A stretch of 64,000 bases of DNA from Flavobacterium sp. (GTDB taxonomy: Bacteria; Bacteroidota; Bacteroidia; Flavobacteriales; Flavobacteriaceae). Under the pieces are notes generated by a model. It worked only from the letters and a program-made list of their open reading frames with translations, searched no databases and was not told the DNA's origin. The stretch lies in the NCBI RefSeq assembly GCF_031409475.1, contig NZ_JANNXH010000004.1:7314-71313 (forward strand). Reading direction: 5' to 3'. The first letter of the stretch is position 1. Each line of letters opens with the position of its first letter. The position numbers and the translations under genes were made by a program. Below, piece after piece: positions 1 to 60,921 of this stretch.

Positions 1-1
1 C

Positions 2-3000
2 AGCGTTTGGAGCCGAAACATACCATTGGTACGTTAAATTTATTATATCACCCGGCAAGTCGTAACCTTCTGTTCCGGCTACAGTTAAGCTTGTTGCTTT
101 ACAAGTTGGTGTGTAAGATGGATGCGTTGTAACTGTTGGTGGTGTTCCTGAAATGAAATTGTAAACACCAATATCGGAATAATCGTTATTAGCACAATCT
201 GCACTAGTTGTTCCAATATAATCAATAATATTCCAATCAGCATTAGAATAAGTTGTCGATGGAAGCGACGGGGCTGTATTTTTTCTTCTAAAAGTAGCTC
301 CATCTGTTTGTGTAGCAAACATTGGTAAAGAAGATGTAGCCCAACTAGGATCTCCAAAAGTTCCCCAGCTGTCTATTTTTGTAGCACCATTAAACAAAGC
401 GATATGGTCATTCCCTTTCGAAGGAGAAAGTTGATAAGCATCAAAATTAATTCCTAAACCAGATATAATTTGAGCTGCCAATGAACCGTTACCATAGGGA
501 GTTGTACACAAATCATCATCCCCTAAAGCCACAGTATATGTTGAACCAGCAGCTAGAGTTACATTACTTAAATTTAGTGGAGATCCAGAATAGGCACCAC
601 CATTCGAGGCTGTGTTTATAGAATAGTTACTTAAAGATTTAGAAACGCCGGTTCCGTTATAAATTTCCACATAAGTCAAACCACCATAATTTGAATCTGT
701 AACTTCGCTGATAAATAAATCAGATGCTACATTGCCACCTTCGCAGGTATTTGCCTTATTATCTATAACTGTGAAAGCATTTGTTGCTTGACAACCTGTT
801 GCAATAGTGGTAACTAAATTTCCAGACGATGCTCCGGATGGAACAAAAACTTTAATTTGTGTAGCTGACACATACGTTACAGGAGTTGCGGCAACTCCAT
901 TAAAAGTAACAGTTGCGCCTGTTAAGTTGTTTGCTGTTGCATTAATTGTTATTTCTGTTCCTACAGGTCCAGAAGTTGGAGTAATGGTGTTTGTTGTTGT
1001 AGGGCAAATTCCTGTTCCTTGAATTACAAAATCATACGTTGATTCGTCAGAATCATTATTAGCAATCGTTAAAGTTGTATTTCTTGTTCCCGAAGCACTT
1101 GGACTAAAAGTAACTGTAAAATCGATACTACTTCCACCATTTACTGTAACCGGAAAAGTAATCCCAGAAACCACAAAATCACTTGAAGCTGTTCCTCCAA
1201 TCATTGAAATTGAAGTAATTGTTAAAGAATCAGTTCCTAAATTTTCAATTCTAAAATCTTTGGCTTGTGAAGACCCAATAGTTGTTGCAGCAAATAAAGT
1301 ATTATCTGTTCCTTGAGGCGTAGTATCTCCATCAGAAATAGATGGGTTTGAACCTACAATACCTCTGACATTAATTTCTCTATCTCTTCTGCCTTTAGTA
1401 ATGTAATTTGTAGATGGCGTTGTGGTAATTCCTGTAAAAGTTAACGTATTAACTCCAGTTGCACCGCCATCAGTCCAAGTAGTTCCATTCCATTGGGTTG
1501 CAACACAATTTGTTTCTGTACCGTTCACATCCGTATTAAAATAGTCAGCCGTTACAGTATAAGTTGGAGAGGTTAAAGTTCCAGATGTAGTTAATTTCCA
1601 AGATCTAGAAATATAATCGGTGGTAGCAAATAAACTAGAATGTTGACCAGTAGATAGTGCATAATCCTCAACTGCTATACCTAAATAAGCTGATGAAAAA
1701 GTTCCTGCGGTAAAATTCACTGTTGCAGGAGAATATTCTATTGTACCTGTTTTATCTCCAACTGGGAAACGATACGTTATACCAGTTGCAGTAATATTTT
1801 TTCTTAAATTTCCGGTTGCTGTTACATCAGAAATTACAAAACTATTTGCTGAATCTCCAAAAGTATTGCTACACGTTGATGCTAGAGTCATTGTATTTGC
1901 AGCTAAATCAATCAATCCATTCGTTAATGTTAAAGCCGTATTTATTGTAACTGCAGAACCCATCGTACAGCCTACTAATATAGCCTCACGATTCATAGTA
2001 AATGTTCCTAAATTAAAATCAGTCGCAAATTTTAAAGTTCCTAAACTTCCTGTTCCATATAAAGTTAGATTTGAAGTTGTGCTTCCTTTAAAAGTTCCAT
2101 TTGTTCCTGTAACTGTATTTGTTCGCCCAGCAGTTCCTAATGTTAATGTATTTCCTGCACTTCCATTAATATCAAAAACATTAGCTGCTGTTCCAAAATC
2201 AATAGAATCTCCTCCAGCTGTTGGGGTTGTAATATTTAAACTAGTTGCTGGAGATGATGCTAATTGTACTGTAGTTGTTCCGCTTGCTGGGGTAAATAAT
2301 ATTTTATTAAATGTTGGTGTGCTCGATGCTGTTATTATTTGAGTTCCGGTTTTTGTAAAAAATATAGCCCTATTTTTTGTATCAAAAGAATAACCTGAAG
2401 TAAAAGTTATATTTCCTCCAATTTTTAAATCATCGCCATTTGCAAAACCTAAAGTCATATTCCCAGCGGAAATTAGGTTGCCAGAAACTGTCAATGCTCC
2501 AGCAGATGAAACACTACCATAATCCATATAAAATATAGAGCCAGTATCTATAGTTAAATTCCCAGCAATCCCTTTTGGTCCAGAATTTCCAGCATTTATA
2601 TAATTTAAAGTAGTAGTATTACTTATTTGAACATTTGTTGGCAATCCTATTGTTCCAACAGCTGCAATATCAGCAGTCCACTCTAACTGACGGTTGTATA
2701 TTGTATTCGAATTATATTGTAGCGTAGAACTTGCTCCGTATTTTGGAGAGTTGCCAATACAAAATCCATTTGCATTAATTTGTAGCTTTCCGTTTATAGT
2801 AACCAATGAACCCGTACCACAATTTAAACCATTTTGCAAATCGACAGTAGTAGTGTTGGTTGCCGATGTAGTCAAAGTTCCGCCGTTGGTAACGGTAATT
2901 GTGTTTGAAGTTATTGCAAATTTACCGTTTGTGGCTGAACTTGTAATAAAGCGATTTCCTCCGTTCAAATTCAGATTCCCTCCACCAGAAAGAGTAAGTG

Positions 3001-5965
3001 TTTGTCCGTTTAAATCTATTGTACTTGATGCATGAGTTGATGACAACGACAATCCAGAACTTGACGTTACATTAATAGCTGTTCCAGTTGCGGGACTTAA
3101 AGTTCCGCTTCCTGCAACTGTTAAATAATTAAAGGTTTCCAAAGTTCCTCCAGTTACTGTAACGATTTGTGAAGTACTCGTGCTTCTATTAAAAATCACC
3201 GCTCTATTATTTTGAGTAAATGAAGCTGTTGATACTCTCGTCCAGTTTCCTGCGAGATACAAATCTCCACTCGTTGCATTCAATGTTAGATTTCCGCTAC
3301 TAATATTTAAACTTCCTGCCATACCACGGTTGCTATTTGGCATTGAAAGCGTAGTGCTATTTTGAATTGTTACGTTATTAGGAACTCCAGAACCAGCAGC
3401 TGTGCTATTGCCTGTCCATTCATTAGAAACTCCGTAAGTACCCGTTGTATTGTAAATTAATGTTGATGAACCACCATAAGTTGGCGTAGCGCTTACACTA
3501 CTACCACTATTGAGCTGCAAGGTTCCATTAATAGTGGGTATGGTTGTCAAAGTAGTCGTGCCATTGATAGTTAGATTATTAAAAGTAATTGCGGTAGCGC
3601 CATTTATCGTTCCTGCTCCTGCAAAAACTACGTTACCAACAGTACTTGAAGTTACTGTTCCTGTATTAGTTAACGAACCACCTGCGTTGATGGTTAGTGT
3701 GCCTGCTGTAGTCCAAGACATCGTGCCGCTATTGTTAATGCTGCCTGTTATAAGGTTTGCATTAGAAGCTCCTGTGACAAATGAAATAGTCCCTGCATTT
3801 ACAATACTTCCAGATGTTGCTGAACCTCCTGCAGAGAATGTTAATATACCAGTACCAACCGTTGTGATAGCTCCAGTAACTGTCAATGCTCCTGATGCTC
3901 CATTAATATTCATAGTGATTCCCGTCAATATGGTCATAGTGGCAAAAGGTGTATTAGTTGTTACTGCTGCAAGTGTTTGATTGTGTGCGAGCGTAACCGT
4001 ACTGTTTGCCAGCGGCACAGAACCTCCTAACCATCTTAAAACGTTATTTATATCACCCGCACTTGAAGTTATATACCCCAAAAAGTTAAAGGATGGAACC
4101 GTTACAGACGTAACAGGAGTTGGGTTAGCCACCACAACATTTCCTGTAAAATTAATTCCTGTGTTTGCAACAACAGCAGTTAATTGAGAAGCACTAATAA
4201 AAGTAACTGTTGACGCAACACCATTAATTGTTACCGTTGAATTAGACTGAAAATTAGTACCATTAATAGTAATGGTTTGTCCTTTAAATCCTGTATTGTT
4301 AGCTTGCACTGTAACGCCAGTAACAGCAGTTGGAACTATAGAAGTAACCGTTGGTGTTAAAGAAAGTGCCGTGTAGGTATAGTTTGAACCACTGTTATCT
4401 GCATAATTTAATAAAGCATACGATTTATCTCCTTCACTAAGTGCAGTCAATGCAGCTTGGCTCATAGTTGAACTAAAAATATAATAATAAACAACAGCTC
4501 CATCTGCTTGGACAGGAATTGTAAAAGTAACTGTAGTTCCTGCAACACTACCAACTGCTGATATGGTTGAACCTCCCGTTGAAAAATCATTGGAAGCTGT
4601 TTTATACCTAACATAAAAATTTTCCTGGGATGAATTGGTAGTACTAATAGTTGCTGTTATAGTAGTAGTGCCATCGTTATTTAAAGTTCTTTGTGTACCT
4701 GTATTATGAGTCATTGTAACAGGTGCATTGGTTGTAAAGCCAGTATAATAACCCGTGCCACTGTAACCATTGTCTTTCAATATAAATGTGTAATGACCAG
4801 CTGTTCCCATATTGAATCCCATATCTGTTGAGCCATTATAAGCCGTGCCATTTATTGCATCAACTGTACCCTGACCAACTCCGCCAAATGCCCATTTGTT
4901 TGCATAAGTTCCCGTTGAGCCACAACCTCCGCCTGAAGTGAACAAAAATCCTGAACTGCCACCGCCGCTCATATTAAGCGGTGTTAGATCACCACCTGAA
5001 GCTTGAACGTTTACCGTATTTACCCATTGCCCACGTCCATCTGTTGGAGTTGATGCTGTTGTGTTTACTTTTCTGTATTTGAGTACCCGATAATCTCCAT
5101 AGGTACAATTGATAGGCTGAGAATAACTATTTATTTGACCTACAAAGTTTACTCCATCACCGCCAAAAATATTTGTACTAGGATTAGTGACAACCACATT
5201 ACCCGTTGTCGCGGAAGTTAAAGGTGCTGATGCAGCAGTTATTGTATACGTATCTGCCTGATTAAAAGCGACATTGTTAAAAGTGGCAACACCCGCAACT
5301 GCATTGGCGGAAAGTGTTCCGCTCATTGTGCCAGTTCCACTTGCTTTGGTCAGTGTAACTGTTCCTGTAAATGAAGGAACAAGCACATTCCCAGCATTTC
5401 TACCCTCGACCGTGAAACTTGATACTGGTGTTCCAGTTGTGCCTGTAGTTGGCACGCTTACTAAAGCTAATTGGGTGGGTGTATTGACAAACCCTGTCCA
5501 AGAAATATCATCGATTTTTATTTGAGCTCCAGAAGTTCTTAATTCTAAAACTATATTGCCTGAAATATTTATTGCTTGAGAATAACTTACAACTACATCC
5601 GATGTAGTTGAGACCGTTATTGTTGAACCAATTTGAACTCCATTAACCCAAACTTCAATACTTCTCGTACTTGTTCCTGTAAATGCTCTCACATAATTAA
5701 AAGTAAGTGTTCCGATACCACCAGCGTAAGTAGGAGATGTTACAGTGCCAAGACCACTTGTACAAATTGCTTTCCCAGTTAAAGTTTCATCAGTTCTTGC
5801 TAATGTTGCACTCCAAGTAACTCCATTTGTACCTGTCCAACTTCTTGTAAGATAGTTCGTCGGAGAAGCTGTTGGAATATTTAAAAAGTTTTCTGAACCC
5901 TGCCCATACGAACTTCCAAAACCCACAAACAAAGCAATCGCAATAAATAGTAATTTTATTTTCAT
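2..5965 (-). CDS. Large secreted multi-domain surface/adhesin-like protein (signal peptide, Ig-like and beta-helix-like regions, choice-of-anchor D-like, IPT/TIG and lamin-tail-like domains); 3' end outside the window, probable T9SS cargo
   Basis: ATG at 5965 (MKIKLLFIAIALFVGFGSSYGQ, Sec signal). The same minus frame is read at every point checked down to base 2 (...TYQWYVSAPNA). Motifs: FRIENLGTDSLTITSI...FTVTFSPSASGTRNTTLTIANNDSDESTYDFVIQG (~1020-1260), TPTSGPVGTEITI (~930-980), LFISEVTDSNYGGLTYVEIYNG (~650-720). Absent from the ORF track because its stop lies beyond the edge. Confidence 0.85.
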   Translation of the reverse strand, partial: MKIKLLFIAIALFVGFGSSYGQGSENFLNIPTASPTNYLTRSWTGTNGVTWSATLARTDETLTGKAICTSGLGTVTSPTYAGGIGTLTFNYVRAFTGTSTRSIEVWVNGVQIGSTITVSTTSDVVVSYSQAINISGNIVLELRTSGAQIKIDDISWTGFVNTPTQLALVSVPTTGTTGTPVSSFTVEGRNAGNVLVPSFTGTVTLTKASGTGTMSGTLSANAVAGVATFNNVAFNQADTYTITAASAPLTSATTGNVVVTNPSTNIFGGDGVNFVGQINSYSQPINCTYGDYRVLKYRKVNTTASTPTDGRGQWVNTVNVQASGGDLTPLNMSGGGSSGFLFTSGGGCGSTGTYANKWAFGGVGQGTVDAINGTAYNGSTDMGFNMGTAGHYTFILKDNGYSGTGYYTGFTTNAPVTMTHNTGTQRTLNNDGTTTITATISTTNSSQENFYVRYKTASNDFSTGGSTISAVGSVAGTTVTFTIPVQADGAVVYYYIFSSTMSQAALTALSEGDKSYALLNYADNSGSNYTYTALSLTPTVTSIVPTAVTGVTVQANNTGFKGQTITINGTNFQSNSTVTINGVASTVTFISASQLTAVVANTGINFTGNVVVANPTPVTSVTVPSFNFLGYITSSAGDINNVLRWLGGSVPLANSTVTLAHNQTLAAVTTNTPFATMTILTGITMNINGASGALTVTGAITTVGTGILTFSAGGSATSGSIVNAGTISFVTGASNANLITGSINNSGTMSWTTAGTLTINAGGSLTNTGTVTSSTVGNVVFAGAGTINGATAITFNNLTINGTTTLTTIPTINGTLQLNSGSSVSATPTYGGSSTLIYNTTGTYGVSNEWTGNSTAAGSGVPNNVTIQNSTTLSMPNSNRGMAGSLNISSGNLTLNATSGDLYLAGNWTRVSTASFTQNNRAVIFNRSTSTSQIVTVTGGTLETFNYLTVAGSGTLSPATGTAINVTSSSGLSLSSTHASSTIDLNGQTLTLSGGGNLNLNGGNRFITSSATNGKFAITSNTITVTNGGTLTTSATNTTTVDLQNGLNCGTGSLVTINGKLQINANGFCIGNSPKYGASSTLQYNSNTIYNRQLEWTADIAAVGTIGLPTNVQISNTTTLNYINAGNSGPKGIAGNLTIDTGSIFYMDYGSVSSAGALTVSGNLISAGNMTLGFANGDDLKIGGNITFTSGYSFDTKNRAIFFTKTGTQIITASSTPTFNKILFTPASGTTTVQLASSPATSLNITTPTAGGDSIDFGTAANVFDINGSAGNTLTLGTAGRTNTVTGTNGTFKGSTTSNLTLYGTGSLGTLKFATDFNLGTFTMNREAILVGCTMGSAVTINTALTLTNGLIDLAANTMTLASTCSNTFGDSANSFVISDVTATGNLRKNITATGITYRFPVGDKTGTIEYSPATVNFTAGTFSSAYLGIAVEDYALSTGQHSSLFATTDYISRSWKLTTSGTLTSPTYTVTADYFNTDVNGTETNCVATQWNGTTWTDGGATGVNTLTFTGITTTPSTNYITKGRRDREINVRGIVGSNPSISDGDTTPQGTDNTLFAATTIGSSQAKDFRIENLGTDSLTITSISMIGGTASSDFVVSGITFPVTVNGGSSIDFTVTFSPSASGTRNTTLTIANNDSDESTYDFVIQGTGICPTTTNTITPTSGPVGTEITINATANNLTGATVTFNGVAATPVTYVSATQIKVFVPSGASSGNLVTTIATGCQATNAFTVIDNKANTCEGGNVASDLFISEVTDSNYGGLTYVEIYNGTGVSKSLSNYSINTASNGGAYSGSPLNLSNVTLAAGSTYTVALGDDDLCTTPYGNGSLAAQIISGLGINFDAYQLSPSKGNDHIALFNGATKIDSWGTFGDPSWATSSLPMFATQTDGATFRRKNTAPSLPSTTYSNADWNIIDYIGTTSADCANNDYSDIGVYNFISGTPPTVTTHPSYTPTCKATSLTVAGTEGYDLPGDIINLTYQWYVSAPNA

Positions 5966-6383
5966 AAAGTGTGTTCTAATTTTTTTCCATGCGTAATTAG
6001 GTCAAGTATATATTTGGTAGTATTGGGAAGGCTAAAATACAATCAAGATACGTACATTTCAAAATTTTTGGATTATGAAATTATTAACAAAACATACTTA
6101 TAACTTATTGTTTTTAAGGCAAGTAAAATTATATCGGTAAAGTGCAAATAAGTTCGATAAAAACGACACAAAACTGTTATTTCTTCTTTTTTGTAAGCCT
6201 TGTAGGATAAAGTCAAAAATGTGATGCCGCAAAAAAAATTATATTTATAATAAGGCATTTCTTACTTTGTTATTTTTTAGTTGTTATCCTATTCTTTTTG
6301 TTATATTAAACTGGTTCCTTTTAAGACCAATTGCTATTAAAAAATAATTGTTTTATTTCATTAATAAACTGTACTTTAGTTAC

Positions 6384-8420
6384 ATGAAAGTACTACAATT
6401 CCCTTTGGCGCGGATTACTATTGGGTTCATATTAGGCATTCTTCTTACGCATTATTTTCAGCCCAAACCGAATCATGTATTTGTGTTGCTTTTTGTTGCT
6501 GTTTGTGTTTTTGTAACTTCTTATTTCACTTCCAAAAAGACTTTTACAAACCCGATTTACTTTGGTTTAACCACCTATTTTCTTGCTTTTGGCATTGGCG
6601 CAAGCACGCAAATTATTCATACTCATTCTTTTCAAAAAAAAAATTATACGCATCATAAAAAAATTTATGAACAACCTCATTTGATCTCTGCAACCATTAG
6701 AGAAAAACTCCGAAGTTCATCGTATAGCGACCGTTATATTGTTTTAATAAAAAGCATTGATAGCGAAAATCGTTCGGGTAGAGTTCTTTTGAACATCAAA
6801 AAAGACAGCCTGAATCGTCCATTAACAATAGGTTCTCATGTTCAATTTTATGGTGATTTTGTTAAAAATACACCAGCAAAAAACCCCAACCAATTTGATT
6901 ACAGCAAATACCTCCGAAGCAAACAAATTTATGCACAGCTTTATGCCGATGCTAGTGAACTCAAAATAGGTTCGGGTGTTGAAAAAAACGTTTGGTATTA
7001 CACCTCGAGATTGCGAACAAGAATCATTGAGAATTTAGAAAAAAGCAATTTCAATAAAGCAGAACTCAACGTTGCCATTGCCTTAATTCTAGGGCAACAA
7101 CAGGAAATTTCGCCCGAAATTATCAAGGATTATCAATATGCTGGTGCGGTTCATATATTGTCGGTTTCGGGATTGCATATTGGATTTATCTTGCTGTTTG
7201 TAACGTTCTTGCTCCAACCTTTTCCTAACACAAAGCGTGGTTCGTTTATCAAATTGATTGTTATTCTCCTGTCGTTGTTTTCGTTTGGGTTAATAGCGGG
7301 TTTGGCACCATCTGTATTGCGCTCGGTTACGATGTTTTCGTTTGTCGCTGTTGGAATGTATTTGCGCCGAAGCACGAATATTTATCATACTTTACTAGTT
7401 TCGATGTTGCTCATTTTACTTTTTGAACCGTCGTTTTTGTTTGATGTGGGTTTCCAGTTGAGTTATGTTGCTTTGTTTTTTATTCTTTGGTTGCAACCAT
7501 TATTAGCCCAACTTTGGACGCCAAAAAATAAAATTGCGATTTATTTTTGGGACATTCTCACGGTTTCGTTTGCGGCACAAATGGGTGCTTTTCCTTTGAG
7601 TATTTATTATTTTCATCAGTTTCCGGGATTATTTTTTGTGACAAATTTAGTTATTATTCCGTTTTTGAGTTTGATCATGGCGTTGGGAGTTGTGGTCATG
7701 GTTTTGGCAGCGTTTGATTATGTTCCGCTTTTTCTCTCCAAAGCATTAGAATGGAGTATTTTTATTTTGAACAAAATCATCAATGCGATCGCCTCGTTAG
7801 AGCAATTTATCATTCGGGATATTCCGTTCAATTGGCAGTTGTTGTTGAGTGTTAATTTGGTTATTATTGCGACCATTCTTTGGTTTAAAAAACCTGGTTT
7901 CAATAGGCTTATTTTTGCTTTGGTTGCCGTAATTATTTTCCAAATTTCCTGTTTTGAAACGCATTGGAGGATACAAAACCAAAGAGAATTAGTAGTATTC
8001 AATTCAAAGAAAAATACGCTGATTGCTGAACGCATTGGCGAAAATGTGCTGTTATATGCTAATGACAGTCTTATGAAAACAGCCTGCAATAATCAATTTG
8101 TATCGGCATATTTAATGGGAAATTTTAGTCGTTTGACGGCTCGAAAAAAACTTGAAAATGTGATTTATTTTAAAGAAAATAAAATTCTGATTATAGACAG
8201 TTCTGGGGTTTATCTAAACGGAATTCATCCCGATATTGTCGTACTTACTCAGTCTCCAAAAATAAATTTAGAACGCTTTTTACAAACTGCAAAACCAAAA
8301 ATGATTGTTGCGGATGCCTCAAATTATAAAACGATTCAAAAGCTTTGGAAAGCCACTTGCTTGAAACAAAAAATCCCTTTTCACTCCACAAGTGAAAAGG
8401 GATTTTATAGATTAGATTAA
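6384..8420 (+). CDS. comEC: ComEC/Rec2 family competence protein
   Basis: Multi-TM protein with HILSVSGLHIG and PSVLRS motifs, FDVGFQLSY. ATG at 6384 preferred over the TTG at 6348. Confidence 0.9.
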   Translation: MKVLQFPLARITIGFILGILLTHYFQPKPNHVFVLLFVAVCVFVTSYFTSKKTFTNPIYFGLTTYFLAFGIGASTQIIHTHSFQKKNYTHHKKIYEQPHLISATIREKLRSSSYSDRYIVLIKSIDSENRSGRVLLNIKKDSLNRPLTIGSHVQFYGDFVKNTPAKNPNQFDYSKYLRSKQIYAQLYADASELKIGSGVEKNVWYYTSRLRTRIIENLEKSNFNKAELNVAIALILGQQQEISPEIIKDYQYAGAVHILSVSGLHIGFILLFVTFLLQPFPNTKRGSFIKLIVILLSLFSFGLIAGLAPSVLRSVTMFSFVAVGMYLRRSTNIYHTLLVSMLLILLFEPSFLFDVGFQLSYVALFFILWLQPLLAQLWTPKNKIAIYFWDILTVSFAAQMGAFPLSIYYFHQFPGLFFVTNLVIIPFLSLIMALGVVVMVLAAFDYVPLFLSKALEWSIFILNKIINAIASLEQFIIRDIPFNWQLLLSVNLVIIATILWFKKPGFNRLIFALVAVIIFQISCFETHWRIQNQRELVVFNSKKNTLIAERIGENVLLYANDSLMKTACNNQFVSAYLMGNFSRLTARKKLENVIYFKENKILIIDSSGVYLNGIHPDIVVLTQSPKINLERFLQTAKPKMIVADASNYKTIQKLWKATCLKQKIPFHSTSEKGFYRLD

Positions 8421-8429
8421 GAAAATTAT
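8352..8429 (+). repeat. Direct repeat copy 1 (comEC 3' end) flanking the PIN TA module
   Basis: Matches 9113-9189 with 6 substitutions and one 1-nt indel; last 42 bp identical. Confidence 0.9.
8370..8406. terminator. 15-bp perfect hairpin embedded in the comEC coding 3' end; likely terminator for the convergent minus-strand transcript
   Basis: AAAATCCCTTTTCAC-tccacaa-GTGAAAAGGGATTTT, encoding K-I-P-F-H-S-T-S-E-K-G-F. Confidence 0.6.
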
Positions 8430-8438
8430 GGTCTATTG

Positions 8439-8837
8439 TTACAAACTTAAAAATTCAAATCTTGAAATTGTAATTATTGGAGGAATTGAAATATGACTTA
8501 ATAATAGTTTGTCTCCAGTTACCAATATACTTTTTGTTTCAATACAAAGGTCGTACAAATAATTGTCGTCTTCGTCTGGAGCTTCTTTATATCGCTGCAT
8601 TATTTGAATGTTTTCGCAATTATTTTTTATTAAATCAACATATTCAATTCCTGGAAGAATTAAATGTTTTTTAATTTTTTTTCTCCCCAAAACATCTTCA
8701 ATCTCATTTACCATTTCGGGGCAAATGTAAATTTGCAGTTTTTTTTCTTCTATATAATTCAAAAGCGTCTTTTCGGAATTAGTAATAATGGCACTTACCC
8801 AAATATTGGTGTCAAGTACAAAACTATTATTCTGCAT
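8439..8837 (-). CDS. PIN-domain toxin of a type II TA system (VapC-like)
   Basis: FVLDTNIWVSA, DEDDNYLYDLC and LVTGDKLL acidic PIN motifs; overlaps the upstream small gene by 11 nt. Confidence 0.85.
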   Translation of the reverse strand: MQNNSFVLDTNIWVSAIITNSEKTLLNYIEEKKLQIYICPEMVNEIEDVLGRKKIKKHLILPGIEYVDLIKNNCENIQIMQRYKEAPDEDDNYLYDLCIETKSILVTGDKLLLSHISIPPIITISRFEFLSL

Positions 8838-9015
8838 TGTACGTTTTAGCGATTGTTTTTCTTGCCTTTCTACACTCTAAAACTATTTCATCAATTGACA
8901 ACAATTCTTGATTTTCCTGAATAATAATTGATTTATTTTCGAGTGAAAGTTTTTTTGCTAGTGCTAACAATGTCTTACCGTTTTTAGTTCGCTCATTAAT
9001 TTTGATTGTTACCAT
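8827..9015 (-). CDS. Putative antitoxin (62 aa)
   Basis: Small gene directly upstream of and overlapping the PIN toxin; -7 box TATGTTTG just upstream on the minus strand. Confidence 0.65.
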   Translation of the reverse strand: MVTIKINERTKNGKTLLALAKKLSLENKSIIIQENQELLSIDEIVLECRKARKTIAKTYNAE

Positions 9016-9112
9016 TTTAGTTTAATTTACATACAAACATACAAAAAAATGAAATGTGTATTATATTCAAAATCTAAATATTTATGGCTTTATAATTGAT
9101 TGATTTAAGAGC

Positions 9113-9189
9113 GCAACCTGTTTAAAACAAAAATCCCTTTTCACGCAACAAGTGAAAAGGGATTTTATAGATTAGATTAAGAAAATTAT
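9113..9189 (+). repeat. Direct repeat copy 2: orphan, frameshifted duplicate of the comEC 3' end including the hairpin
   Basis: gcaacctgtttaaaacaaaaatcccttttcacgcaacaagtgaaaagggattttatagattagattaagaaaattat; reads ATCLKQ(K/-1)IPFHATSEKGFYRLD*. Confidence 0.9.
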
Positions 9190-9650
9190 TTTGTTTTAAT
9201 AATTCCATTGGCAGCAGCCAACCAAGCTGCTGGTCCACCAGCAACATAACCCGTACTTCCTAGTCCTTTAAAATTAGGTTTCCCATCTTTTACGGTTGCA
9301 TTTGCAAACCAAATTGTAGGATAGCCTTGTATTGCGAAAGCTTGTTGCAAGTCTGCATTTTGTTTTTTGATTTGATCCGTTTGTGGTACTCGTCTCGGGT
9401 AATCTAATTCAACTAGAATTACATTTTCTTTAGCCCATTTTGCAAATTCTGGTTTTTTAAACACCTCGTTTTGCAAACGAATACACCAACCACACCAATC
9501 GCTACCTGTAAAAAACAACAACATTGGTTTTTTGGTTTTATTAGACATTGCAATTGCTTTATTGACATCGGTTTGCCAATTTAATTCTTGTGCTTGAACA
9601 GCAAATGAGCCCAAGACAAATAATACGATTAAAACTATTTTTTTATTCAT
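9186..9650 (-). CDS. Secreted thioredoxin-fold protein
   Basis: Signal peptide, FTGSDWCGWC (CxxC), GYPT cis-Pro motif. Confidence 0.85.
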   Translation of the reverse strand: MNKKIVLIVLFVLGSFAVQAQELNWQTDVNKAIAMSNKTKKPMLLFFTGSDWCGWCIRLQNEVFKKPEFAKWAKENVILVELDYPRRVPQTDQIKKQNADLQQAFAIQGYPTIWFANATVKDGKPNFKGLGSTGYVAGGPAAWLAAANGIIKTK

Positions 9651-22026: not shown

Positions 22027-22099
22027 GGTACCTTAGCTCAGATGGTAGAGCAATGGACTGAAAATCCATGTGTCCCTGGTTCGATCCCTGGAGGTACCA
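22027..22099 (+). tRNA. tRNA-Phe (GAA)
   Basis: Acceptor GGTACCT/AGGTACC, D-arm GCTC/GAGC, anticodon stem ATGGA/TCCAT with loop CTGAAAA, GGTTCGA T-loop; CCA not encoded. Confidence 0.97.
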
Positions 22100-22410
22100 C
22101 AAAACCCACTTTTAATGAGTGGGTTTTTTTTTTCAAACATTTTTTATGGCATCCCATTCTCTTTACATTTTATATTCTAGATCTAATATAAAATATTATG
22201 TGGGCGAAACTCATAATATTGAAGAAAGAATATTAAAACACAATCAACATTTGTATTCTAATTCCTTTACAAAAATTGCTAATGATTGGGAATAAGTCTT
22301 ATTACATCATTGTGAGAATAGAACAAAAGCCCTTTTTCTTGAAAAATTTATTAAGAAAATGAAAAGCAAAGTTTTCATTCAAAAGATAATTTCAAATCCT
22401 AAAATATTAA
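22088..22410 (+). repeat. Direct repeat unit 1: tRNA 3' end + terminator + GIY-YIG gene
   Basis: ~97% identical to 23271-23592 (about 9 substitutions, 1 indel), offset 1183 bp. Confidence 0.95.
22101..22127 (+). terminator. Intrinsic terminator after tRNA-Phe (repeated at ~23284-23310)
   Basis: AAAACCCACT-tttaatg-AGTGGGTTTT followed by a T-run. Confidence 0.85.
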
Positions 22411-22439
22411 ATGAAATTATTTTAAAAAATAATATTTAA
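22146..22439 (+). pseudogene. Small GIY-YIG nuclease, inactivated by a TTA>TAA nonsense change at codon 50
   Basis: MASHSLYILYS..KYYVGETHNIEERILKHN..DWE*VLL..NEIILKNNI; stop at 22293-95 where copy 2 has TTA. Confidence 0.85.
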
Positions 22440-22567: not shown

Positions 22568-22813
22568 ATGGCACGAAATACATCAATTTTAATTGGAGAA
22601 TATTACGAAAATTTTATAAACAGACAAATTGCTACAGGAAAATATAATTCTGTAAGCGAAGTTGTTAGAACTGCTTTGAGATATTTTGAACAGGAAGAAA
22701 TGAAAACTAAATCTCTAATTGCAGAATTAGAACTTGGAGAAAAAAGTGAAAAAATCCGAAATTTTAACCGAACTGAAAATTTAAAACGGTTAAACGAAAA
22801 TTTCCAAAAGTAA
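22568..22813 (+). CDS. parD: ParD-family (RHH) antitoxin
   Basis: MARNTSILIGEYYENFINRQIATGKYNSVSEVVRTALR; ATG at 22568 (the track's 22445 start is an extension). Confidence 0.88.
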   Translation: MARNTSILIGEYYENFINRQIATGKYNSVSEVVRTALRYFEQEEMKTKSLIAELELGEKSEKIRNFNRTENLKRLNENFQK

Positions 22814-23112
22814 TGGCGGAATATATCATAAGTGAAAAAGCACTTGACGATTTGAATACTATTTGGATTTACACAGCGGAAAATTGGTCGCTTGAACAAG
22901 CAAACCGATATTATAATTTGATAATGGACGAAATAGAATTTGTTGCAGAAAATTTTGAAACAAGCAAAGATTTTGGAAGTATTCGAAAAGATTATCGATT
23001 TTCAAAAGTGAAATCGCATTTAATATTTTGCAAACGAGTTGAAAATACTGAAATGGAAGTAGTGAGAATTTTGCATGAAAAAATGGATATTAAAAATAGA
23101 ATTAACGATTAA
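22813..23112 (+). CDS. parE: ParE/RelE-family toxin
   Basis: YIISEKALDDLNTIWIYT..WSLEQANRY..HLIF..VVRILHEKMD; TAATG overlap with parD. Confidence 0.9.
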   Translation: MAEYIISEKALDDLNTIWIYTAENWSLEQANRYYNLIMDEIEFVAENFETSKDFGSIRKDYRFSKVKSHLIFCKRVENTEMEVVRILHEKMDIKNRIND

Positions 23113-23270: not shown

Positions 23271-23592
23271 CTGGAGGTACCACAAAACCCACTTATTATG
23301 AGTGGATTTTTTTTTCAAACATTTTTTATGGCATCCCATTCACTTTACATTTTATATTCTAGATCTAATATAAAATATTATGTGGGCGAAACTCATAATA
23401 TTGAAGAAAGAATATTAAAACACAATCAGCATTTGTATTCTAATTCCTTTACAAAAATTGCTAATGATTGGGAATTAGTCTTATTACATCATAGTGAGGA
23501 TAGAACAAAAGCCCTTTTTCTTGAAAAATTTATTAAGAAAATGAAAAGCAAAATTTTCATTCAAAAGATAATTTCAAATCCTAAAATATTAA
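23271..23592 (+). repeat. Direct repeat unit 2: tRNA 3' end + terminator + GIY-YIG gene
   Basis: Begins CTGGAGGTACCACAAAACCCACT, identical to the tRNA-Phe 3' end and its downstream sequence. Confidence 0.95.
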
Positions 23593-23600
23593 AGGACTAA
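23328..23600 (+). CDS. Small GIY-YIG nuclease (90 aa; C-terminus 7 aa shorter than copy 1)
   Basis: YILYS..YYVGET.N.EER..HN GIY-YIG signature; ATG at 23328. Confidence 0.8.
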   Translation: MASHSLYILYSRSNIKYYVGETHNIEERILKHNQHLYSNSFTKIANDWELVLLHHSEDRTKALFLEKFIKKMKSKIFIQKIISNPKILKD

Positions 23601-42024: not shown

Positions 42025-42089
42025 AAACCATATAAGGCATTAAGGACAAATAAGAAAACTTAAATGAACTTACATGCCTTATATGGTTT
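42025..42089. repeat. AT-rich intergenic inverted-repeat element (16-bp perfect arms)
   Basis: AAACCATATAAGGCAT ... ATGCCTTATATGGTTT; its right half recurs at 43974-44011. Confidence 0.8.
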
Positions 42090-42125
42090 AATAATAAAGT
42101 TGAATTAAAATTAATTATTTATCAA

Positions 42126-43973: not shown

Positions 43974-44011
43974 AAGAAAAACTTAAATGAACTTATATGC
44001 CTTATATGGTT
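43974..44011 (+). repeat. Right-half copy of the 42025-42089 element
   Basis: AAGAAAAACTTAAATGAACTTATATGCCTTATATGGTT vs 42052-42088. Confidence 0.75.
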
Positions 44012-44025
44012 CAAAAAAAACAACC

Positions 44026-46402: not shown

Positions 46403-46453
46403 AACCATTAGATAATTAAGAACAACTAACTGAATCTTAATTTCGTATTGGTT
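46403..46453. repeat. Degenerate AT-rich intergenic inverted repeat
   Basis: AACCATTAGATAATTAAGA ... TCTTAATTTCGTATTGGTT, 15/19 complementary. Confidence 0.55.
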
Positions 46454-46461
46454 CAAAAAAA

Positions 46462-48114
46462 ATGAAAATGAAAAAATTAATATTATTATTTGTATTTGCT
46501 CTAGTTCTTACCAGTTGTTCCTCAACAAAAACAACTCAAACAGCATCAAAAACTCCCTTCGTCTGGGAAGGCGCAAATTTATATTTTTTATTGACCGACC
46601 GTTTTAAAAATGGAAATTCATCGAAAGAAATTTATTTAAATCGAATCAAAACTGCAGGAAAGCTTCGTGGATTCGAAGGGGGAAATATCAAAGGAATTAT
46701 CCAAAAAATCGATGACGGTTATTTCGAAAATCTAGGTATAAATGCCATTTGGCTGACGCCCATTGTTGAACAAATTCACGATGGTGTTGATGAAGGAACG
46801 GGTTTGTCTTATGGTTTTCATGGATATTGGACTAGAGATTGGACCGCATTGGATCCTAATTTTGGAACCAAAGAAGATTTAGCCAATTTAGTTACCAAAG
46901 CCCATGCAAAAGGAATCAGAATTATGCTCGATGGTGTTATAAATCATACTGGTCCAGTAACTGAAATTGATTCTGTATGGCCAAATGACTGGGTTAGAAC
47001 GAGTCCACAATGTGATTATAAAAGTTATGAAAACACTACAGCTTGTACACTGGTTAAAAATCTTCCTGATATAAAAACAGATAGCAATCAAGCTGTAGAT
47101 CTTCCCCCTTTTTTAATCGAAAAATGGAAATCAGAAGGTCGTTATGATAAAGAGGTTGCCTCATTAAACGCTTTTTTCAAAAGAACAGGTTATCCAAGAG
47201 CACCCAAATATTACATTATAAAATGGCTCACCGATTACATAACTGAGTTTGGAGTTGATGGCTATAGAGTTGACACTGTGAAGCATGCCGAAGAGGATGT
47301 TTGGGCTGCTTTTAAAATACAGAGTGAATATGCTTTTGAAATTTGGAAAAACAACAACCCTGAAAAAGTATTGGACAACAACCCGTTTTATACCATTGCC
47401 GAAGTCTATAATTATGGAATTAGTACCGGTCAAAATTTTAATTTTCCTGATAAAAAAGTAAATTATTACCAGAATGGATTCAATAATATGATTAATTTTG
47501 AGTTCAAATGGGATGCAAAAAACGACTATGAAAGTATTTTTTCTAAATATTCCGAAAAGCTAAATACAGATCTAAAAGGATTCAGCGTTTTGAACTATTT
47601 ATCGTCTCACGATGACGGAAGTCCGTTTGATGCTAAACGAACTAAAAGTATCGAAAGCGGCACAAAACTATTGCTTTCTCCAGGAATTTCACAAGTGTAT
47701 TATGGTGATGAAACGGGTCGTTCACTTGTAATTGATGGGACACAAGGCGATGCCACTTTGCGTTCGAATATGAATTGGGACGAACTAAAATCAAATCCCG
47801 AAATCCAAAAAACACTTTTACACTGGCAAAAATTAGGTCAGTTTAGAAGAAATCATACTTCAATTGGTGCTGGAATTCACAAACAGATTTCGGCAAAACC
47901 TTATGTTTTTAGTAGAGTATTTATTAAAGATAATTATACTGATAGTGTTGTGGTAGGATTGGATTTGTCCATCGGAAAAAAAGAAATTTCAGTAGGGACA
48001 ATTTTCGAAAATGGAACAAAACTGATAGATGCTTATTCCGGAAAAACTGCGGTTGTTATAAATGGCAAGATTAATATTGATACCGAATTTGATATCGTTT
48101 TATTAGAAAAATGA
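46462..48114 (+). CDS. GH13 alpha-amylase lipoprotein
   Basis: Lipobox LTSC, LTDRF, GFHGYW, DGYRVDTVKH, IAE, SSHDD. Confidence 0.88.
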   Translation: MKMKKLILLFVFALVLTSCSSTKTTQTASKTPFVWEGANLYFLLTDRFKNGNSSKEIYLNRIKTAGKLRGFEGGNIKGIIQKIDDGYFENLGINAIWLTPIVEQIHDGVDEGTGLSYGFHGYWTRDWTALDPNFGTKEDLANLVTKAHAKGIRIMLDGVINHTGPVTEIDSVWPNDWVRTSPQCDYKSYENTTACTLVKNLPDIKTDSNQAVDLPPFLIEKWKSEGRYDKEVASLNAFFKRTGYPRAPKYYIIKWLTDYITEFGVDGYRVDTVKHAEEDVWAAFKIQSEYAFEIWKNNNPEKVLDNNPFYTIAEVYNYGISTGQNFNFPDKKVNYYQNGFNNMINFEFKWDAKNDYESIFSKYSEKLNTDLKGFSVLNYLSSHDDGSPFDAKRTKSIESGTKLLLSPGISQVYYGDETGRSLVIDGTQGDATLRSNMNWDELKSNPEIQKTLLHWQKLGQFRRNHTSIGAGIHKQISAKPYVFSRVFIKDNYTDSVVVGLDLSIGKKEISVGTIFENGTKLIDAYSGKTAVVINGKINIDTEFDIVLLEK

Positions 48115-49654: not shown

Positions 49655-52384
49655 ATGAAAAAAATCTACTTATTTTGCTTCTTAACATTGTCAATTTTTT
49701 CTTATGGTCAAATTTTTGGAGAGTTTGCTTCGGGTATAAGAATTAATAATACAATTTATAACACTTCTGGAATTTCTCCTAATTTAATAAATTCAGATCC
49801 TGGTGCGTTAACTTTCGATGGAGTAAGTTTAGGTGTTTATGGACAAAATTCAAGTTGTGGTGAAATTACCGCTGGTGAAATTAAAACTTTCAAAAATGCT
49901 TCGGCTAACGTATGTAGCGCAACTATAAATTGGCGTGTCTATTTAGCAAGCGGTTCTCCGTCAGGAATCTTCAATACAATTTCATTAAATACTGTAACTA
50001 ATTGTAATACAGGAACAAGTGTTTTTAATGACGGACTTGGTGCATGCGCAAATGGTGATCAAAAATGGAAAGATTACGGTTTAAATATAGATTTTGTAAA
50101 TTCTTTATTACCTGAAAATTACATTCTTGAAATTTATTATTCTTTCACAGGTTCTGATGTAAGTACTTCGACTTGTGAGACAACAAAGTATATTAGTAAT
50201 TCGGGTGCAAATTTCAAAGCGTCGTTTACAATTTCAAAACCAACAACAAGCCCATCAGCATCATCAACGTCAATCTGTGAAGGCGATAGTCTAACATTAA
50301 CTTCAAATCCTAGTGGAGGAGTTCTTCCGTATACTTTCAGTTGGACTGGACCAAATGGATATACTTCAACCGATGAAAATCCGGTAATAACTAATACAAC
50401 TATATCAAATTCAGGTACCTATTCTGTTATTGCAACTGATGCATGTGGAGTAGTTACAGTCACACAAAGTACAGCAGCAGTTTTAGTAAATCCAAAAATA
50501 GACCCTGAGTTTGATGCAACATTACCCGCAATATGTAGAAATGGTATTGCTCCTCTATTATCAACAACATCAACCAATGGTATAACAGGAACATGGAATC
50601 CTCCAATTGTGAGCAATACGACAACAACAACCTATTTATTTACACCTACAGCAGGACAATGTGCCAACACCTTGTCATTCACTATTTTTGTTGTTAATAA
50701 TGTTACTCCTGTTTTTACATTACCAAATTCAATTTGCTCAGGAGCAACTCCACCAGTTTTATCAAATATTGCTAATAATGGTATAGTAGGTTTTTGGAGT
50801 CCATCAACTGTGAGTAATACCGCTACCGGTACTTATAATTTCACCCCTAGCACTTTGCAATGTGCAACAGCATTTTCGAAAACTATAGTTGTAAATCCTT
50901 TAGTGGCTATTTTTCTCCCTGCAATTCCGCCGATTTGCTCTGGCGATGCTTTAGCTGCTTTACCGACTACTTCTACCAATGGAATTACTGGAACTTGGTC
51001 GCCTGCAGTGAATAATACCGCTACTACAACTTATACCTTTACTCCAACTTCTGGACAATGTGCTACAGCAACTGTCAATTTAACAATTGTGGTAAATCAG
51101 TTTTTAGCTACTTTTAATGCTGTTCCTGCAATATGTTCTGGTGATTCTTTAGCTGCTTTACCGACTACTTCTACCAATGGAATTACTGGAACTTGGTCGC
51201 CTGCAGTGAATAATACCGCTACTACAACCTATACCTTTACTCCAACTTCTGGACAATGTGCTACAGCATCTACAAGTTTGACTGTTGTTGTAAATCCAGT
51301 TATAACTCCAACTTTTACACCAATTGTCTCAATATGTGCTGGTACTACAAGTCCAATTTTACCCTTAACTTCAAACAATGGTTATGCGGGAACTTGGAAT
51401 CCGTCTGTAGTAAGTAATACGAATTCTGGAGTCTATGTTTTTACGCCTGATCCTGTTCCAAGCTTATGCCTTTTAACAACCTCATTGCAAATTATTGTAA
51501 ATCCATTAGTTGCAATTTTTAATCCAGTTCCTGCCATTTGTTCTGGAGATTCATTGGCAGCTCTACCGACTACTTCTACGAACGGAGTTACTGGTTCTTG
51601 GTCGCCGCCATTGAACAATACCAATACTACAACTTATATGTTTACTCCTGATGGCGGTCAATGTGCTACAACGGCTACCTTAACCATTACCGTTAATCCT
51701 AAAATTACACCAACTTTTACAGCTGTTGCATCAATTTGTTCTGGCTCAACTAGACCAGTTTTGCCTTTAATATCAAATAATTTAATAGCAGGAAGTTGGA
51801 ACCCAGCAACGGTTAGTAATACAGCTTCTGCAACCTACACTTTTACTCCTAATGTGGGCCAATGTGGCACAACTACAACATTGATTATAACTGTAAATAC
51901 ATCTCCTACTGATATTTTATTTGCCACAACAAATGTTATAAATCAAGGTCCTGATGGAATCATTGAAATTTTAAGTGTTACAAGCGGTGTGAGTCCTTAT
52001 TTATATAGTATAAACAATAGTGGGTTTACTTCAAATAAAATATTTACAAATTTATTGCCTGGAAATTATACAATAACTGTTCGAGATGTAAATGGATGTG
52101 AATTCAATAAGATTGTTACAATAGATTCTGATTGTGTATTCCCAAATGCCATTTCTCCAAACAGAGATTCATTTAATGATACTTTTGATCTTAATGGATG
52201 TAAAATTAATAAATTGGAAATTTTTAATAGATATGGAAGAAAAGTTAATAGCTACATTGATTACAAAGATCAATGGGATGGAATAAATAGCAATGGTGAA
52301 GAGTTACCTGATGGAACCTATTTTTATGTTGCAGAAATTGAAGGTGGAACGGTAAAAACAGGCTGGGTATTTATTGCTCGTTAA
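49655..52384 (+). CDS. Secreted repeat protein with type B T9SS (gliding-motility-associated) C-terminal domain
   Basis: Signal peptide, seven ~66-aa ICSG..GTWSP..YTFTP..QC repeats, SprB-like module, CTD FPNAISPNRDSFNDTF..IFNRYG..WDG..GTYFY..GWVFIAR. Confidence 0.9.
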   Translation: MKKIYLFCFLTLSIFSYGQIFGEFASGIRINNTIYNTSGISPNLINSDPGALTFDGVSLGVYGQNSSCGEITAGEIKTFKNASANVCSATINWRVYLASGSPSGIFNTISLNTVTNCNTGTSVFNDGLGACANGDQKWKDYGLNIDFVNSLLPENYILEIYYSFTGSDVSTSTCETTKYISNSGANFKASFTISKPTTSPSASSTSICEGDSLTLTSNPSGGVLPYTFSWTGPNGYTSTDENPVITNTTISNSGTYSVIATDACGVVTVTQSTAAVLVNPKIDPEFDATLPAICRNGIAPLLSTTSTNGITGTWNPPIVSNTTTTTYLFTPTAGQCANTLSFTIFVVNNVTPVFTLPNSICSGATPPVLSNIANNGIVGFWSPSTVSNTATGTYNFTPSTLQCATAFSKTIVVNPLVAIFLPAIPPICSGDALAALPTTSTNGITGTWSPAVNNTATTTYTFTPTSGQCATATVNLTIVVNQFLATFNAVPAICSGDSLAALPTTSTNGITGTWSPAVNNTATTTYTFTPTSGQCATASTSLTVVVNPVITPTFTPIVSICAGTTSPILPLTSNNGYAGTWNPSVVSNTNSGVYVFTPDPVPSLCLLTTSLQIIVNPLVAIFNPVPAICSGDSLAALPTTSTNGVTGSWSPPLNNTNTTTYMFTPDGGQCATTATLTITVNPKITPTFTAVASICSGSTRPVLPLISNNLIAGSWNPATVSNTASATYTFTPNVGQCGTTTTLIITVNTSPTDILFATTNVINQGPDGIIEILSVTSGVSPYLYSINNSGFTSNKIFTNLLPGNYTITVRDVNGCEFNKIVTIDSDCVFPNAISPNRDSFNDTFDLNGCKINKLEIFNRYGRKVNSYIDYKDQWDGINSNGEELPDGTYFYVAEIEGGTVKTGWVFIAR
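50950..51268 (+). repeat. Near-identical intragenic tandem repeats, 198-bp period
   Basis: 50950-51070 vs 51148-51268: 121 bp with one mismatch. Confidence 0.9.
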
Positions 52385-60192: not shown

Positions 60193-60894
60193 ATGAAAAT
60201 CAACTTATTTTATATATCATTGTTGTTCTTTGTGAGTTATAATAGTAACTCACAAAGAATTAGTGATATCGTTGATCCTTTTTCTTCGAATACCACTTTA
60301 TTTAAAAACAGTAACCAAAACAAAACAGCTTTAAATAAAATAGAAGGCTCACCCTATCTCATTGAAGAATTTAGATCTGCAAGTATTTCAGGAATTGCTC
60401 AAAAACTAATGATTCGATACAATGCATTTACTGATATAATTGAAGTGCAAAATGAAAATAAAGAACTGTTTTCGCTTACAAAATCCAATCCATTTAATAA
60501 TATCGAAATTGTTTTAATCCCTAATAAAATTAAACTTATAAATTATTTGGCTAAAGGAAATGCATTTTTTGGATATTTATTCGAAATATACAATCAAGAA
60601 AATCTTGCATTATATCGAAGAGACCGCATTACACTCAAAAAAGGAAAAGAAGCTAGTAATTCATACCAAGTAGCCACTGAAACGATGTATGTTAAAGAAA
60701 ATGTAGAATACTATATTAGTTTTAAAAATGAAACTGCGCTGCAAATGGTCAAAAACAAAAAAGAGCTTGAGGCAATATTTCCAAATCATAAACAAGAAAT
60801 TGAGATTTTTTTAAAAAATAATAATTACTCTTTTAAAAAAGAGCAAGATTTAATCGAAATCGCAAAATTTATTACAACATTAATAATTAAATAA
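60193..60894 (+). CDS. Secreted hypothetical protein, paralog A
   Basis: Signal peptide; IEGSPY, RYNAFTDIIEVQ, KNKKELEAIFP, NYSFKKEQDL shared with the next gene. Confidence 0.75.
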   Translation: MKINLFYISLLFFVSYNSNSQRISDIVDPFSSNTTLFKNSNQNKTALNKIEGSPYLIEEFRSASISGIAQKLMIRYNAFTDIIEVQNENKELFSLTKSNPFNNIEIVLIPNKIKLINYLAKGNAFFGYLFEIYNQENLALYRRDRITLKKGKEASNSYQVATETMYVKENVEYYISFKNETALQMVKNKKELEAIFPNHKQEIEIFLKNNNYSFKKEQDLIEIAKFITTLIIK

Positions 60895-60921
60895 GTCAAA
60901 CTAATTAAAACTTGAAAAATC

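Follow-up and report, generated by a model that had tools for sequence, protein, structure and literature searches.

How a toxin-antitoxin (TA) gene pair without mobility genes comes to lie between two copies of the end of a housekeeping gene is the question raised by positions 8352-9189 of the 64-kb stretch of Flavobacterium DNA analysed here, the whole of which is referred to as the window. A first-pass annotation had described at this locus an antitoxin and a PIN-domain toxin between 78- and 77-bp direct repeats of the 3' end of the competence gene comEC, and had proposed that the pair was inserted with replacement of the gene end. The observation is confirmed and the interpretation supported by the present analysis, which adds that insertions of this type are recurrent, form arrays, and carry a signature that constrains their mechanism. 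On the simplest reading of the sequences, the two repeat copies would be functional ends of comEC from different lineages that were joined by recombination. The account preferred here, which is held with middling confidence, is that a self-promoted TA cassette entered the junction between comEC and its convergent neighbour, a thioredoxin-like gene (trx), by recombination within gene-end homology and was kept there by addiction; it is favoured because the orphan copies look like foreign functional alleles.

The duplicated comEC end and its TA cassette

The comEC gene (6348-8420, plus strand) encodes a protein of 690 amino acids (aa) with matches to the Pfam families Competence (1.8e-54) and DUF4131 (6e-24), and is intact, as had been claimed. 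Its last 22 codons and stop codon lie inside repeat copy 1 (8352-8429, 78 nt), which consists of the functional comEC 3' end, the stop codon, and 9 nt beyond. Copy 2 (9113-9189, 77 nt) is an orphan comEC end, its frame broken by a 1-nt deletion, and abuts the stop codon of trx (9186-9650, minus strand; 154 aa, Pfam Thioredoxin_7 and Thioredoxin_2), a convergent neighbour of comEC whose synteny is seen in about 70 loci. The duplicated segment is the whole convergent junction, comprising 22 comEC codons, an embedded hairpin, the stop codon, and the 9 nt past it, which extend 1 nt beyond the trx stop codon. Gapped alignment places both repeats exactly where they had been reported, and reveals six substitutions and the 1-nt deletion, which falls in an A-run. 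Four consecutive differences are, again as reported, synonymous third-position changes from copy 1 to copy 2 in Ala, Thr, Cys, and Leu codons (GCC>GCA, ACT>ACC, TGC>TGT, and TTG>TTA), one codon is altered from Ser to Ala (TCC>GCA), and the final 42 nt of the copies are identical. Because of the indel, an ungapped comparison matches just 69 nt, at 93%. Each half of the repeat occurs exactly twice in the window and was found 0 times in 100 shuffles; a genome-wide repeat resembling repetitive extragenic palindromes (REPs) or miniature inverted-repeat transposable elements (MITEs) was rejected, as there are just two copies in the 64 kb. Freshwater-sediment metagenomes hold contigs that are 100% identical to the window, and two 100%-identical Logan contigs, found via a look-up of the thioredoxin, end at the k-1 overlap of the repeat, a break that shows no more than a branching of the assembly graph at the repeat.

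Between the copies lie 683 nt (8430-9112), in which the sole coherent genes, as the annotation had it, are those of the PIN-domain toxin (8439-8837; 132 aa, PIN_3/TIGR00305) and a 62-aa antitoxin candidate (8827-9015). Both are on the minus strand and overlap by 11 nt. Upstream of them is a 97-nt leader and putative promoter region (9016-9112, minus strand) with a -7 box of the Bacteroidota type TAnnTTTG, TATGTTTG at 9041-9034, which is 26 nt upstream of the start codon of the 62-aa open reading frame (ORF); a related motif, TTTGTATnTTTGTAT, precedes the antitoxin in a cassette found at the rnhA gene of a relative (L093, where L-numbers denote relatives' loci). The cassette may thereby carry its own promoter. 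No integrase or transposase was found in the cassette or among ORFs of at least 150 aa from 9 to 22 kb of the window, in agreement with the annotation. A transposon, insertion sequence (IS), or MITE was rejected, as the cassette ends have no terminal inverted repeats and the duplication measures 77-78 nt against a target-site duplication of <15 bp.

The toxin assignment is based on profile matches (PF13470, PIN_3, 6e-18; TIGR00305, 4e-17) and on acidic residues D9, E45, D88/D91, and D109, which are invariant in 25 homologues. Ratios of nonsynonymous to synonymous substitution rates (dN/dS) of 0.11-0.22 for the PIN gene and 0.08-0.11 for the 62-aa ORF indicate purifying selection on both. Neither Pfam nor NCBIfam gave a match for the smaller protein, which falls into no described family, and its AlphaFold2 model, two helices with a mean predicted local distance difference test score of 81, gave no significant fold match in the PDB; the ORF is always upstream of the PIN gene in homologous loci, and it is from this gene context that it is taken as a candidate antitoxin. 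The cassette is predicted to be a type II TA pair with a PIN (VapC-like) RNase toxin. An exact-protein look-up of the toxin returned no record, and tblastn searches found no match in a phage collection and a single one in a plasmid collection (Tsukamurella, 30% identical), apart from which the PIN subfamily is absent from both.

Each repeat copy also contains a perfect hairpin of 15-17 bp that is followed on the minus strand by a T-run and scores as an intrinsic terminator. Hairpin 1 (8370-8406, minus strand; 17-bp stem, -22.5 kcal/mol, z -4.75) is embedded in the comEC codons KIPFH..EKGF and is terminator-like for the TA operon, and hairpin 2 (9130-9166, minus strand; 15-bp stem, -19.7 kcal/mol, z -4.67) is terminator-like for trx. 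A hairpin in the comEC coding end is kept in about 75 of 80 Flavobacterium loci and is near-invariant, its stems encoding KIPF and EKGF with third positions fixed, which points to selection on the structure; it is probably the trx terminator. Rfam yielded only sub-threshold matches, driven by the hairpins.

Empty, occupied, and multiply occupied sites

The state of the junction in relatives was assessed in 80 Flavobacterium comEC loci, each from a species representative. Their ComEC proteins are 55-77% identical to that of the window, identifying its host as Flavobacterium, and the closest relative compared stands at 77%. In relatives, lpxB and surE are the neighbours on the upstream side. Empty sites, which the annotation had suggested looking for, are the commonest state: in about 55 of the 80 species comEC and trx converge with a gap of 8-12 nt and a single hairpin copy. 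Other cargo is found there too: three loci hold unrelated genes between two diverged comEC-end copies. The cargo is a 569-aa secreted protein in L013, proteins of 593 and 189 aa in L037, and an IS200/RAYT-like gene with REP-like palindromes and a membrane protein in L018 and in L023, which has the left junction of L018. The orphan copy of L037 retains the canonical ...YRLD* end, and its functional copy ends ...YRL* with a stop codon supplied by the insert. Donor and host copies could not be assigned when L018 was compared with L019 and L023, the comEC end being too variable there. The palindromes of L018 (8100-9610) and L023 (4900-5830) are several, GC-rich (GCTAGCGCGAGC...GCTCGCGCTAGC), and located beside the 182-aa IS200/RAYT-like gene, within the junction of an otherwise AT-rich genome.

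Members of the F. johnsoniae clade have thioredoxin paralogues between comEC and trx, and in seven loci (L066, L068, L070, L073, L075, L077, and L078) a second comEC-end hairpin copy lies between the paralogues, an arrangement suggestive of paralogue cassettes having entered at this junction. In those seven loci the second hairpin has a YKLN*-like tail and is about 720 nt downstream of comEC. An IS1595-like transposase occupies the junction in L060, and a 608-aa gene with an IS3 element in L026. None of the cargos at the junction in the 80 loci includes an integrase, and a scan of viral contigs for the comEC-end hairpin motif gave 0 matches.

The TA cassette itself is found in other lineages. 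PIN homologues 60-97% identical to that of the window lie at the comEC/trx junction in contigs from metagenomes or metagenome-assembled genomes (L083, L084-87, L088-90, L123, and L124), and both hairpin copies are present wherever the contig extends far enough. Lineages with PIN proteins only 60-79% identical still show orthologous junctions, and cassette ends align throughout this set, pointing to one insertion as the common origin. In metagenome contigs, related strains carry the cassette, and co-occurring species that are more distant have the junction empty. The pair is not fixed in all relatives: on the ComEC tree occupied lineages are scattered among empty ones, and orthologous cassettes in scattered lineages mean that the insertion is old and patchy. 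Occupied L088 and empty L050 have flanks that are about 97% identical right up to the repeat. At long range, TA nucleotide divergence tracks flank divergence. Between the window and L083, synonymous divergence (dS) is 0.013 for the PIN gene versus 0.58 for the adjacent comEC C-terminus, with the transition in identity near 8271-8303, and in strains from metagenome runs X7 and X10 the cassette is 97-98.6% identical and the flanks 91-94%. Judged from these sequence comparisons, the insertion is neither recent nor private to the window genome; repeated loss or gain has marked its history, and recombination continues to exchange it between lineages. In X10, a hot-spring metagenome with a cassette 98.6% identical, 70 unrelated letters stand in place of the 70 nt that separate the antitoxin start from copy 2 (window 9058-9129).

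A second site for the same TA subfamily is found downstream of rnhA, where PIN homologues 52-60% identical (L091-L095, L125, and L126-128) are flanked by direct repeats of the last 35-110 nt of that gene; more distant PIN_3 genes are without such repeats. Here the insertions have grown into arrays with 2-4 repeat copies. The order in L094 (1-3100) is rnhA, PIN cassette, repeat, RelE/ParE-like pair, repeat, paralogous pair, and repeat remnant; in L093 (3660-6390) a third repeat copy follows an AAA-ATPase gene; and in L125 (1-900) a DUF2281-type gene pair lies between repeat copies. All rnhA repeat copies have a common outer boundary at the stop codon plus about 7 nt and an inner boundary that differs by cargo type, and L093 and L126 share a distinct synonymous allele in the copy adjoining pfkB, the core gene downstream. 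No palindrome is present in the rnhA repeat, and viral contigs scanned for the rnhA-end motif gave 0 matches. An insertion directed at a hairpin, by a group II intron or an IS200-type element, was rejected because the rnhA target has none. Antitoxin and PIN genes overlap in every locus but L094, where an insert of about 150 nt (1032-1207) with 45-nt inverted-repeat arms (78% complementary) parts the two, possibly a MITE that splits the TA operon.

Further cassettes between repeats extend the range of targets. In the window, a ParD (TIGR02606) and ParE/RelE-like pair (22568-23112) lies between 327-nt direct repeats (22088-22414 and 23271-23596) that are 97% identical, each comprising the last 12 nt of tRNA-Phe (22027-22100), a hairpin, and a small GIY-YIG gene, the left copy of which has a nonsense change (TTA>TAA). 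The 5' end of comEC is duplicated around other cargo in two relatives: L009 (3658-4788) has an 86-aa ORF and a 139-aa protein, called PIN-type from its sequence, between 169-nt copies, and L017 (4598-6075) has ORFs of 175 and 55 aa between 268-nt copies, so that both ends of comEC are insertion sites. Of the two L009 copies, the orphan resembles relatives' comEC slightly more than the functional one does. Across sites, repeat lengths and boundaries vary with the cargo, from 33 to 327 nt.

This variety bears upon two explanations that invoke an integrase. The cassette could be the decayed remnant of a larger integrase-carrying island or prophage that entered the comEC 3' end and then lost everything but the addictive TA pair. 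TA modules are common on islands and often outlast them, and the ParDE cassette of the window is situated at a tRNA-Phe 3' end, which is a classical integrase target. Decay is nevertheless hard to reconcile with boundaries so tight that 0-9 nt separate the repeat from the PIN stop codon, and so stable that they are identical in lineages down to 68% PIN nucleotide identity. The same minimal unit is found again at rnhA, where the arrays would require several independent decays to minimal pairs, and no occupant of intermediate size with mobility genes was found; a remnant origin is considered very improbable.

Alternatively, a recombinase encoded elsewhere might act in trans, possibly recognising the 15+7+15 palindrome, in which case the repeats would be the attL and attR of a non-autonomous element such as a cis-mobilizable element (CIME), a tycheposon remnant, or an integron cassette. 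In their overlap with gene 3' ends the repeats do resemble classical att sites, the hairpin is built like the core site of a tyrosine recombinase, and the rnhA tandem arrays with their repeat copies resemble accretion or integron arrays, tycheposon islands likewise pushing in successive elements (bioRxiv 10.1101/2020.12.28.424599). Tested as att cores, the window copies share their 42 identical nt, and repeat boundaries differ between cargo types. Against such a recombinase, none of about 95 loci, made up of the 80 comEC loci and roughly 15 with a TA cassette or rnhA-site insert, was found to have an integrase-bearing occupant at either site, repeat motifs are without matches in viral contigs, and the rnhA repeat is without a palindrome. 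No core sequence common to the comEC and rnhA junctions or to the cassette ends was found, repeat length and boundaries depend on the cargo, and similar duplications occur at the comEC 5' end. Integration in trans is thus thought improbable. An integron gene cassette, or a cluster of attC sites lacking an integrase (CALIN), was rejected on account of the perfect palindrome within comEC coding sequence, its absence from the rnhA repeat, and the lack of a nearby integrase.

Origin of the repeat copies

Whether the orphan copy arose from its neighbour or arrived from outside can be read from the codon positions at which the two differ, as a freely decaying orphan duplicate is expected to accumulate differences evenly over codon positions. 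In the window pair, 5 of 6 substitutions are at third positions (p = 0.018), and in the L093 pair all four changes are synonymous and at third positions. When four pairs, which are not independent, are pooled, third positions account for 17 of 25 differences (p = 4e-4) and 18 of 25 are synonymous (p = 0.003, even allowing for selection on one copy). The proposal of the annotation that the orphan was once a functional comEC end is strengthened by this same synonymous bias in the rnhA-end repeats. As to which copy matches the ancestral allele, a check that it had also suggested, the answer is partial: copy 2 retains the Ala codon typical of the genus, and the four synonymous sites say nothing on ancestry. 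The functional copy of L083 matches copy 1 in its left part and copy 2 in its loop.

The principal competitor is a long duplication of the target in situ, in which the cassette would have been captured when the junction suffered a staggered double-strand break or was locally duplicated in tandem. The copies would then both come from the host and be identical at birth; later differences would reflect drift in the orphan, selection acting on its functional counterpart, and gene conversion from time to time. For restriction-modification units this is the implied reading, and in the published cases the two repeats often resemble each other more than either resembles the empty target (PMC2853133). 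Duplication in situ is favoured by the match between copies 1 and 2 (71 of 78), closer than to nearly any other sampled comEC end. Four consecutive synonymous changes in the window and four of four in L093 are, however, unexpected for a decaying orphan, and the pooled synonymous excess persists when selection on one copy is allowed. The single outer boundary for all rnhA cargo, positioned where coding conservation ends, fits the limits of homology and not random staggered cuts, and copy 1 of L088 differs from the empty allele of L050 at 5 positions against 1.8 expected from background (p = 0.036). Duplication in situ is accordingly viewed as unlikely.

Several points, in addition to the non-independence of the pooled pairs, weigh against recombination with a foreign gene end. 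The synonymous bias is absent from the older pairs L084, L123, and L124, and from the GIY-YIG repeat, as duplication in situ would have it. Also in line with that alternative, the comEC-end copies share lineage-specific loop and tail states within each genome, a likeness that could equally come from gene conversion after duplication in situ. Among about 90 comEC ends, no donor allele matches copy 2 better than copy 1. The exchange between the window and L083 has its breakpoint 50-80 nt beyond the repeat and so looks like ordinary flank-mediated homologous recombination rather than a crossover in the repeat. In the assembled contigs, which cannot show rare excision, neither a circle nor an excision junction nor a read of the empty site came to light for the window's strain, and the scheme presupposes natural competence, or some route by which circular DNA enters, in these Flavobacterium. 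The mechanism is inferred, because no excision product was seen.

In the mechanism proposed, incoming DNA would have carried its own gene-end allele beside the cassette and recombined inside the gene-end homology with the chromosome, the duplication owing nothing to a staggered cut. This might proceed through Campbell-type integration of a circular molecule composed of gene end and cassette, or through homology-facilitated illegitimate recombination. Either route would explain why the repeat stops where coding conservation stops, why inner boundaries are cargo-specific, and why orphan and functional copies differ mainly at synonymous sites. After insertion, copy 1 would complete comEC and terminate the TA operon, and copy 2 would maintain a terminator for trx. 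Recombination between the repeats would delete the cassette and restore a perfect empty site; such deletion would be disfavoured while the toxin is active, which could make addiction modules the commonest cargo.

Comparison with known systems and further features of the window

Cassettes between duplicated gene ends form a pattern so far described for restriction-modification genes, and the present sequences appear to extend it to a TA pair. Restriction-modification units, small addiction modules without mobility genes, insert with long target duplications, which are direct repeats of 45-420 bp of unique targets, some overlapping gene 3' ends, and sibling genomes have empty sites; DNA breaks made by the restriction enzyme are suspected to play a part in the mechanism (Furuta, Abe and Kobayashi 2010, PMC2853133). 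Their survey did not cover this Bacteroidota genus. An earlier description of such insertions was reportedly given by Nobusato et al. in 2000 (Gene 259:99). The 2010 definition comprises a complete addiction module, a size of <20 kb, no mobility gene, a unique direct duplication of >30 bp, and a relative with an empty site whose one copy aligns with both repeats, all of which apply to the window cassette; its cargo is a PIN-type TA pair and not a restriction-modification system, and it is therefore a variant rather than a strict member of the class. The resemblance includes the small addiction module without a mobility gene, the variable-length, long direct duplication of a unique target that often overlaps a gene 3' end, the empty sites in related genomes, and repeats that permit amplification, here seen as tandem paralogous cassettes in L094. 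The differences are that the cargo is of the type II TA kind, and sometimes consists of non-addiction genes, that the repeat copies look allelic in their mostly synonymous differences, and that arrays of different cassettes have one outer boundary. As the predicted toxin is an RNase rather than a DNase, the insertion cannot be put down to DNA breaks by its cargo, and the explanation proposed for restriction-modification units is inapplicable here. The annotation had called it unusual for a bare TA pair to insert in this manner, which holds, with the qualification that it is not unprecedented, given the restriction-modification units, and is recurrent in Flavobacterium. Among searchable papers that name both long target duplication and TA systems, those examined had the term in their reference lists only.

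CIMEs are att-flanked, non-autonomous elements. With them and with degenerate tycheposon elements (bioRxiv 10.1101/2020.12.28.424599) the present cassettes share gene-end direct repeats, older insertions that are pushed outward, and a content limited to cargo, and differ in having no integrase-bearing relative at the sites, no conserved core, repeat lengths specific to the cargo, and protein-coding targets (comEC and rnhA) instead of tRNA genes, save for the window ParDE cassette. The TA cassettes of chromosomal integrons are likewise small, self-promoted units between repeated, partly palindromic sequences, with a presumed role in stabilising an unstable repeat array; intI, attI, and attC architecture are absent here, however, and the repeat is the coding end of a housekeeping gene. 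Homology-facilitated illegitimate recombination is usually reported with deletions in the recipient rather than duplications. It has experimental documentation from a few competent species and from E. coli conjugation, and not from Flavobacterium. Similar to the scheme proposed here, it combines one homologous anchor in a conserved gene with one illegitimate joint, and can thus place foreign DNA next to such a gene with no need of an element-encoded enzyme (for example PMC3240628).

The spread of TA and restriction-modification modules through chromosomes in the absence of mobility genes is a long-standing puzzle, and the loci described here offer natural material for it: one site in empty, TA-occupied, and otherwise occupied states, and a second with arrays of cassettes. 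F. johnsoniae is a genetically tractable species of the genus. What the material contributes is that synonymous differences between repeat copies point to recombination with a foreign allele and not to a staggered cut. Flavobacterium might even host a general, cargo-independent, and integrase-free pathway in which cassettes travel with a copied gene end and integrate by recombination there, although this wider proposal is tentative and more doubtful than not. If true, the pathway would build integron-like TA arrays, as at rnhA, without integron machinery, addiction modules would dominate solely through resisting deletion between repeats, and the long-target-duplication insertions of restriction-modification systems, unexplained since 2000, would be accounted for too. 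For genome annotation, orphan gene-end fragments beside small gene pairs are best regarded as insertion scars rather than pseudogenes.

Elsewhere in the window, trx is followed by two POT-family transporter genes. The first 6 kb (1-6000) has few long plus-strand ORFs, and short ORFs there translate to low-complexity sequence rich in Ala, Val, Pro, and Thr; a very large gene on the minus strand probably extends beyond the start of the window. Five tandem units of about 198 nt, 60-87% identical, at 50810-51874 are apparently a repeated domain in a large coding region, and a tandem duplication at 60193-61662 has left adjacent paralogous genes (233 and 246 aa) with 131-nt matching 3' parts that are 77% identical. 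Finally, a direct repeat of 42-43 nt (76-91% identical) occurs at 42055-42097, 43978-44020, and 46449-46490, spaced by about 1.9-2.4 kb and just upstream of ATG starts, and is possibly a shared leader or promoter of paralogous genes.

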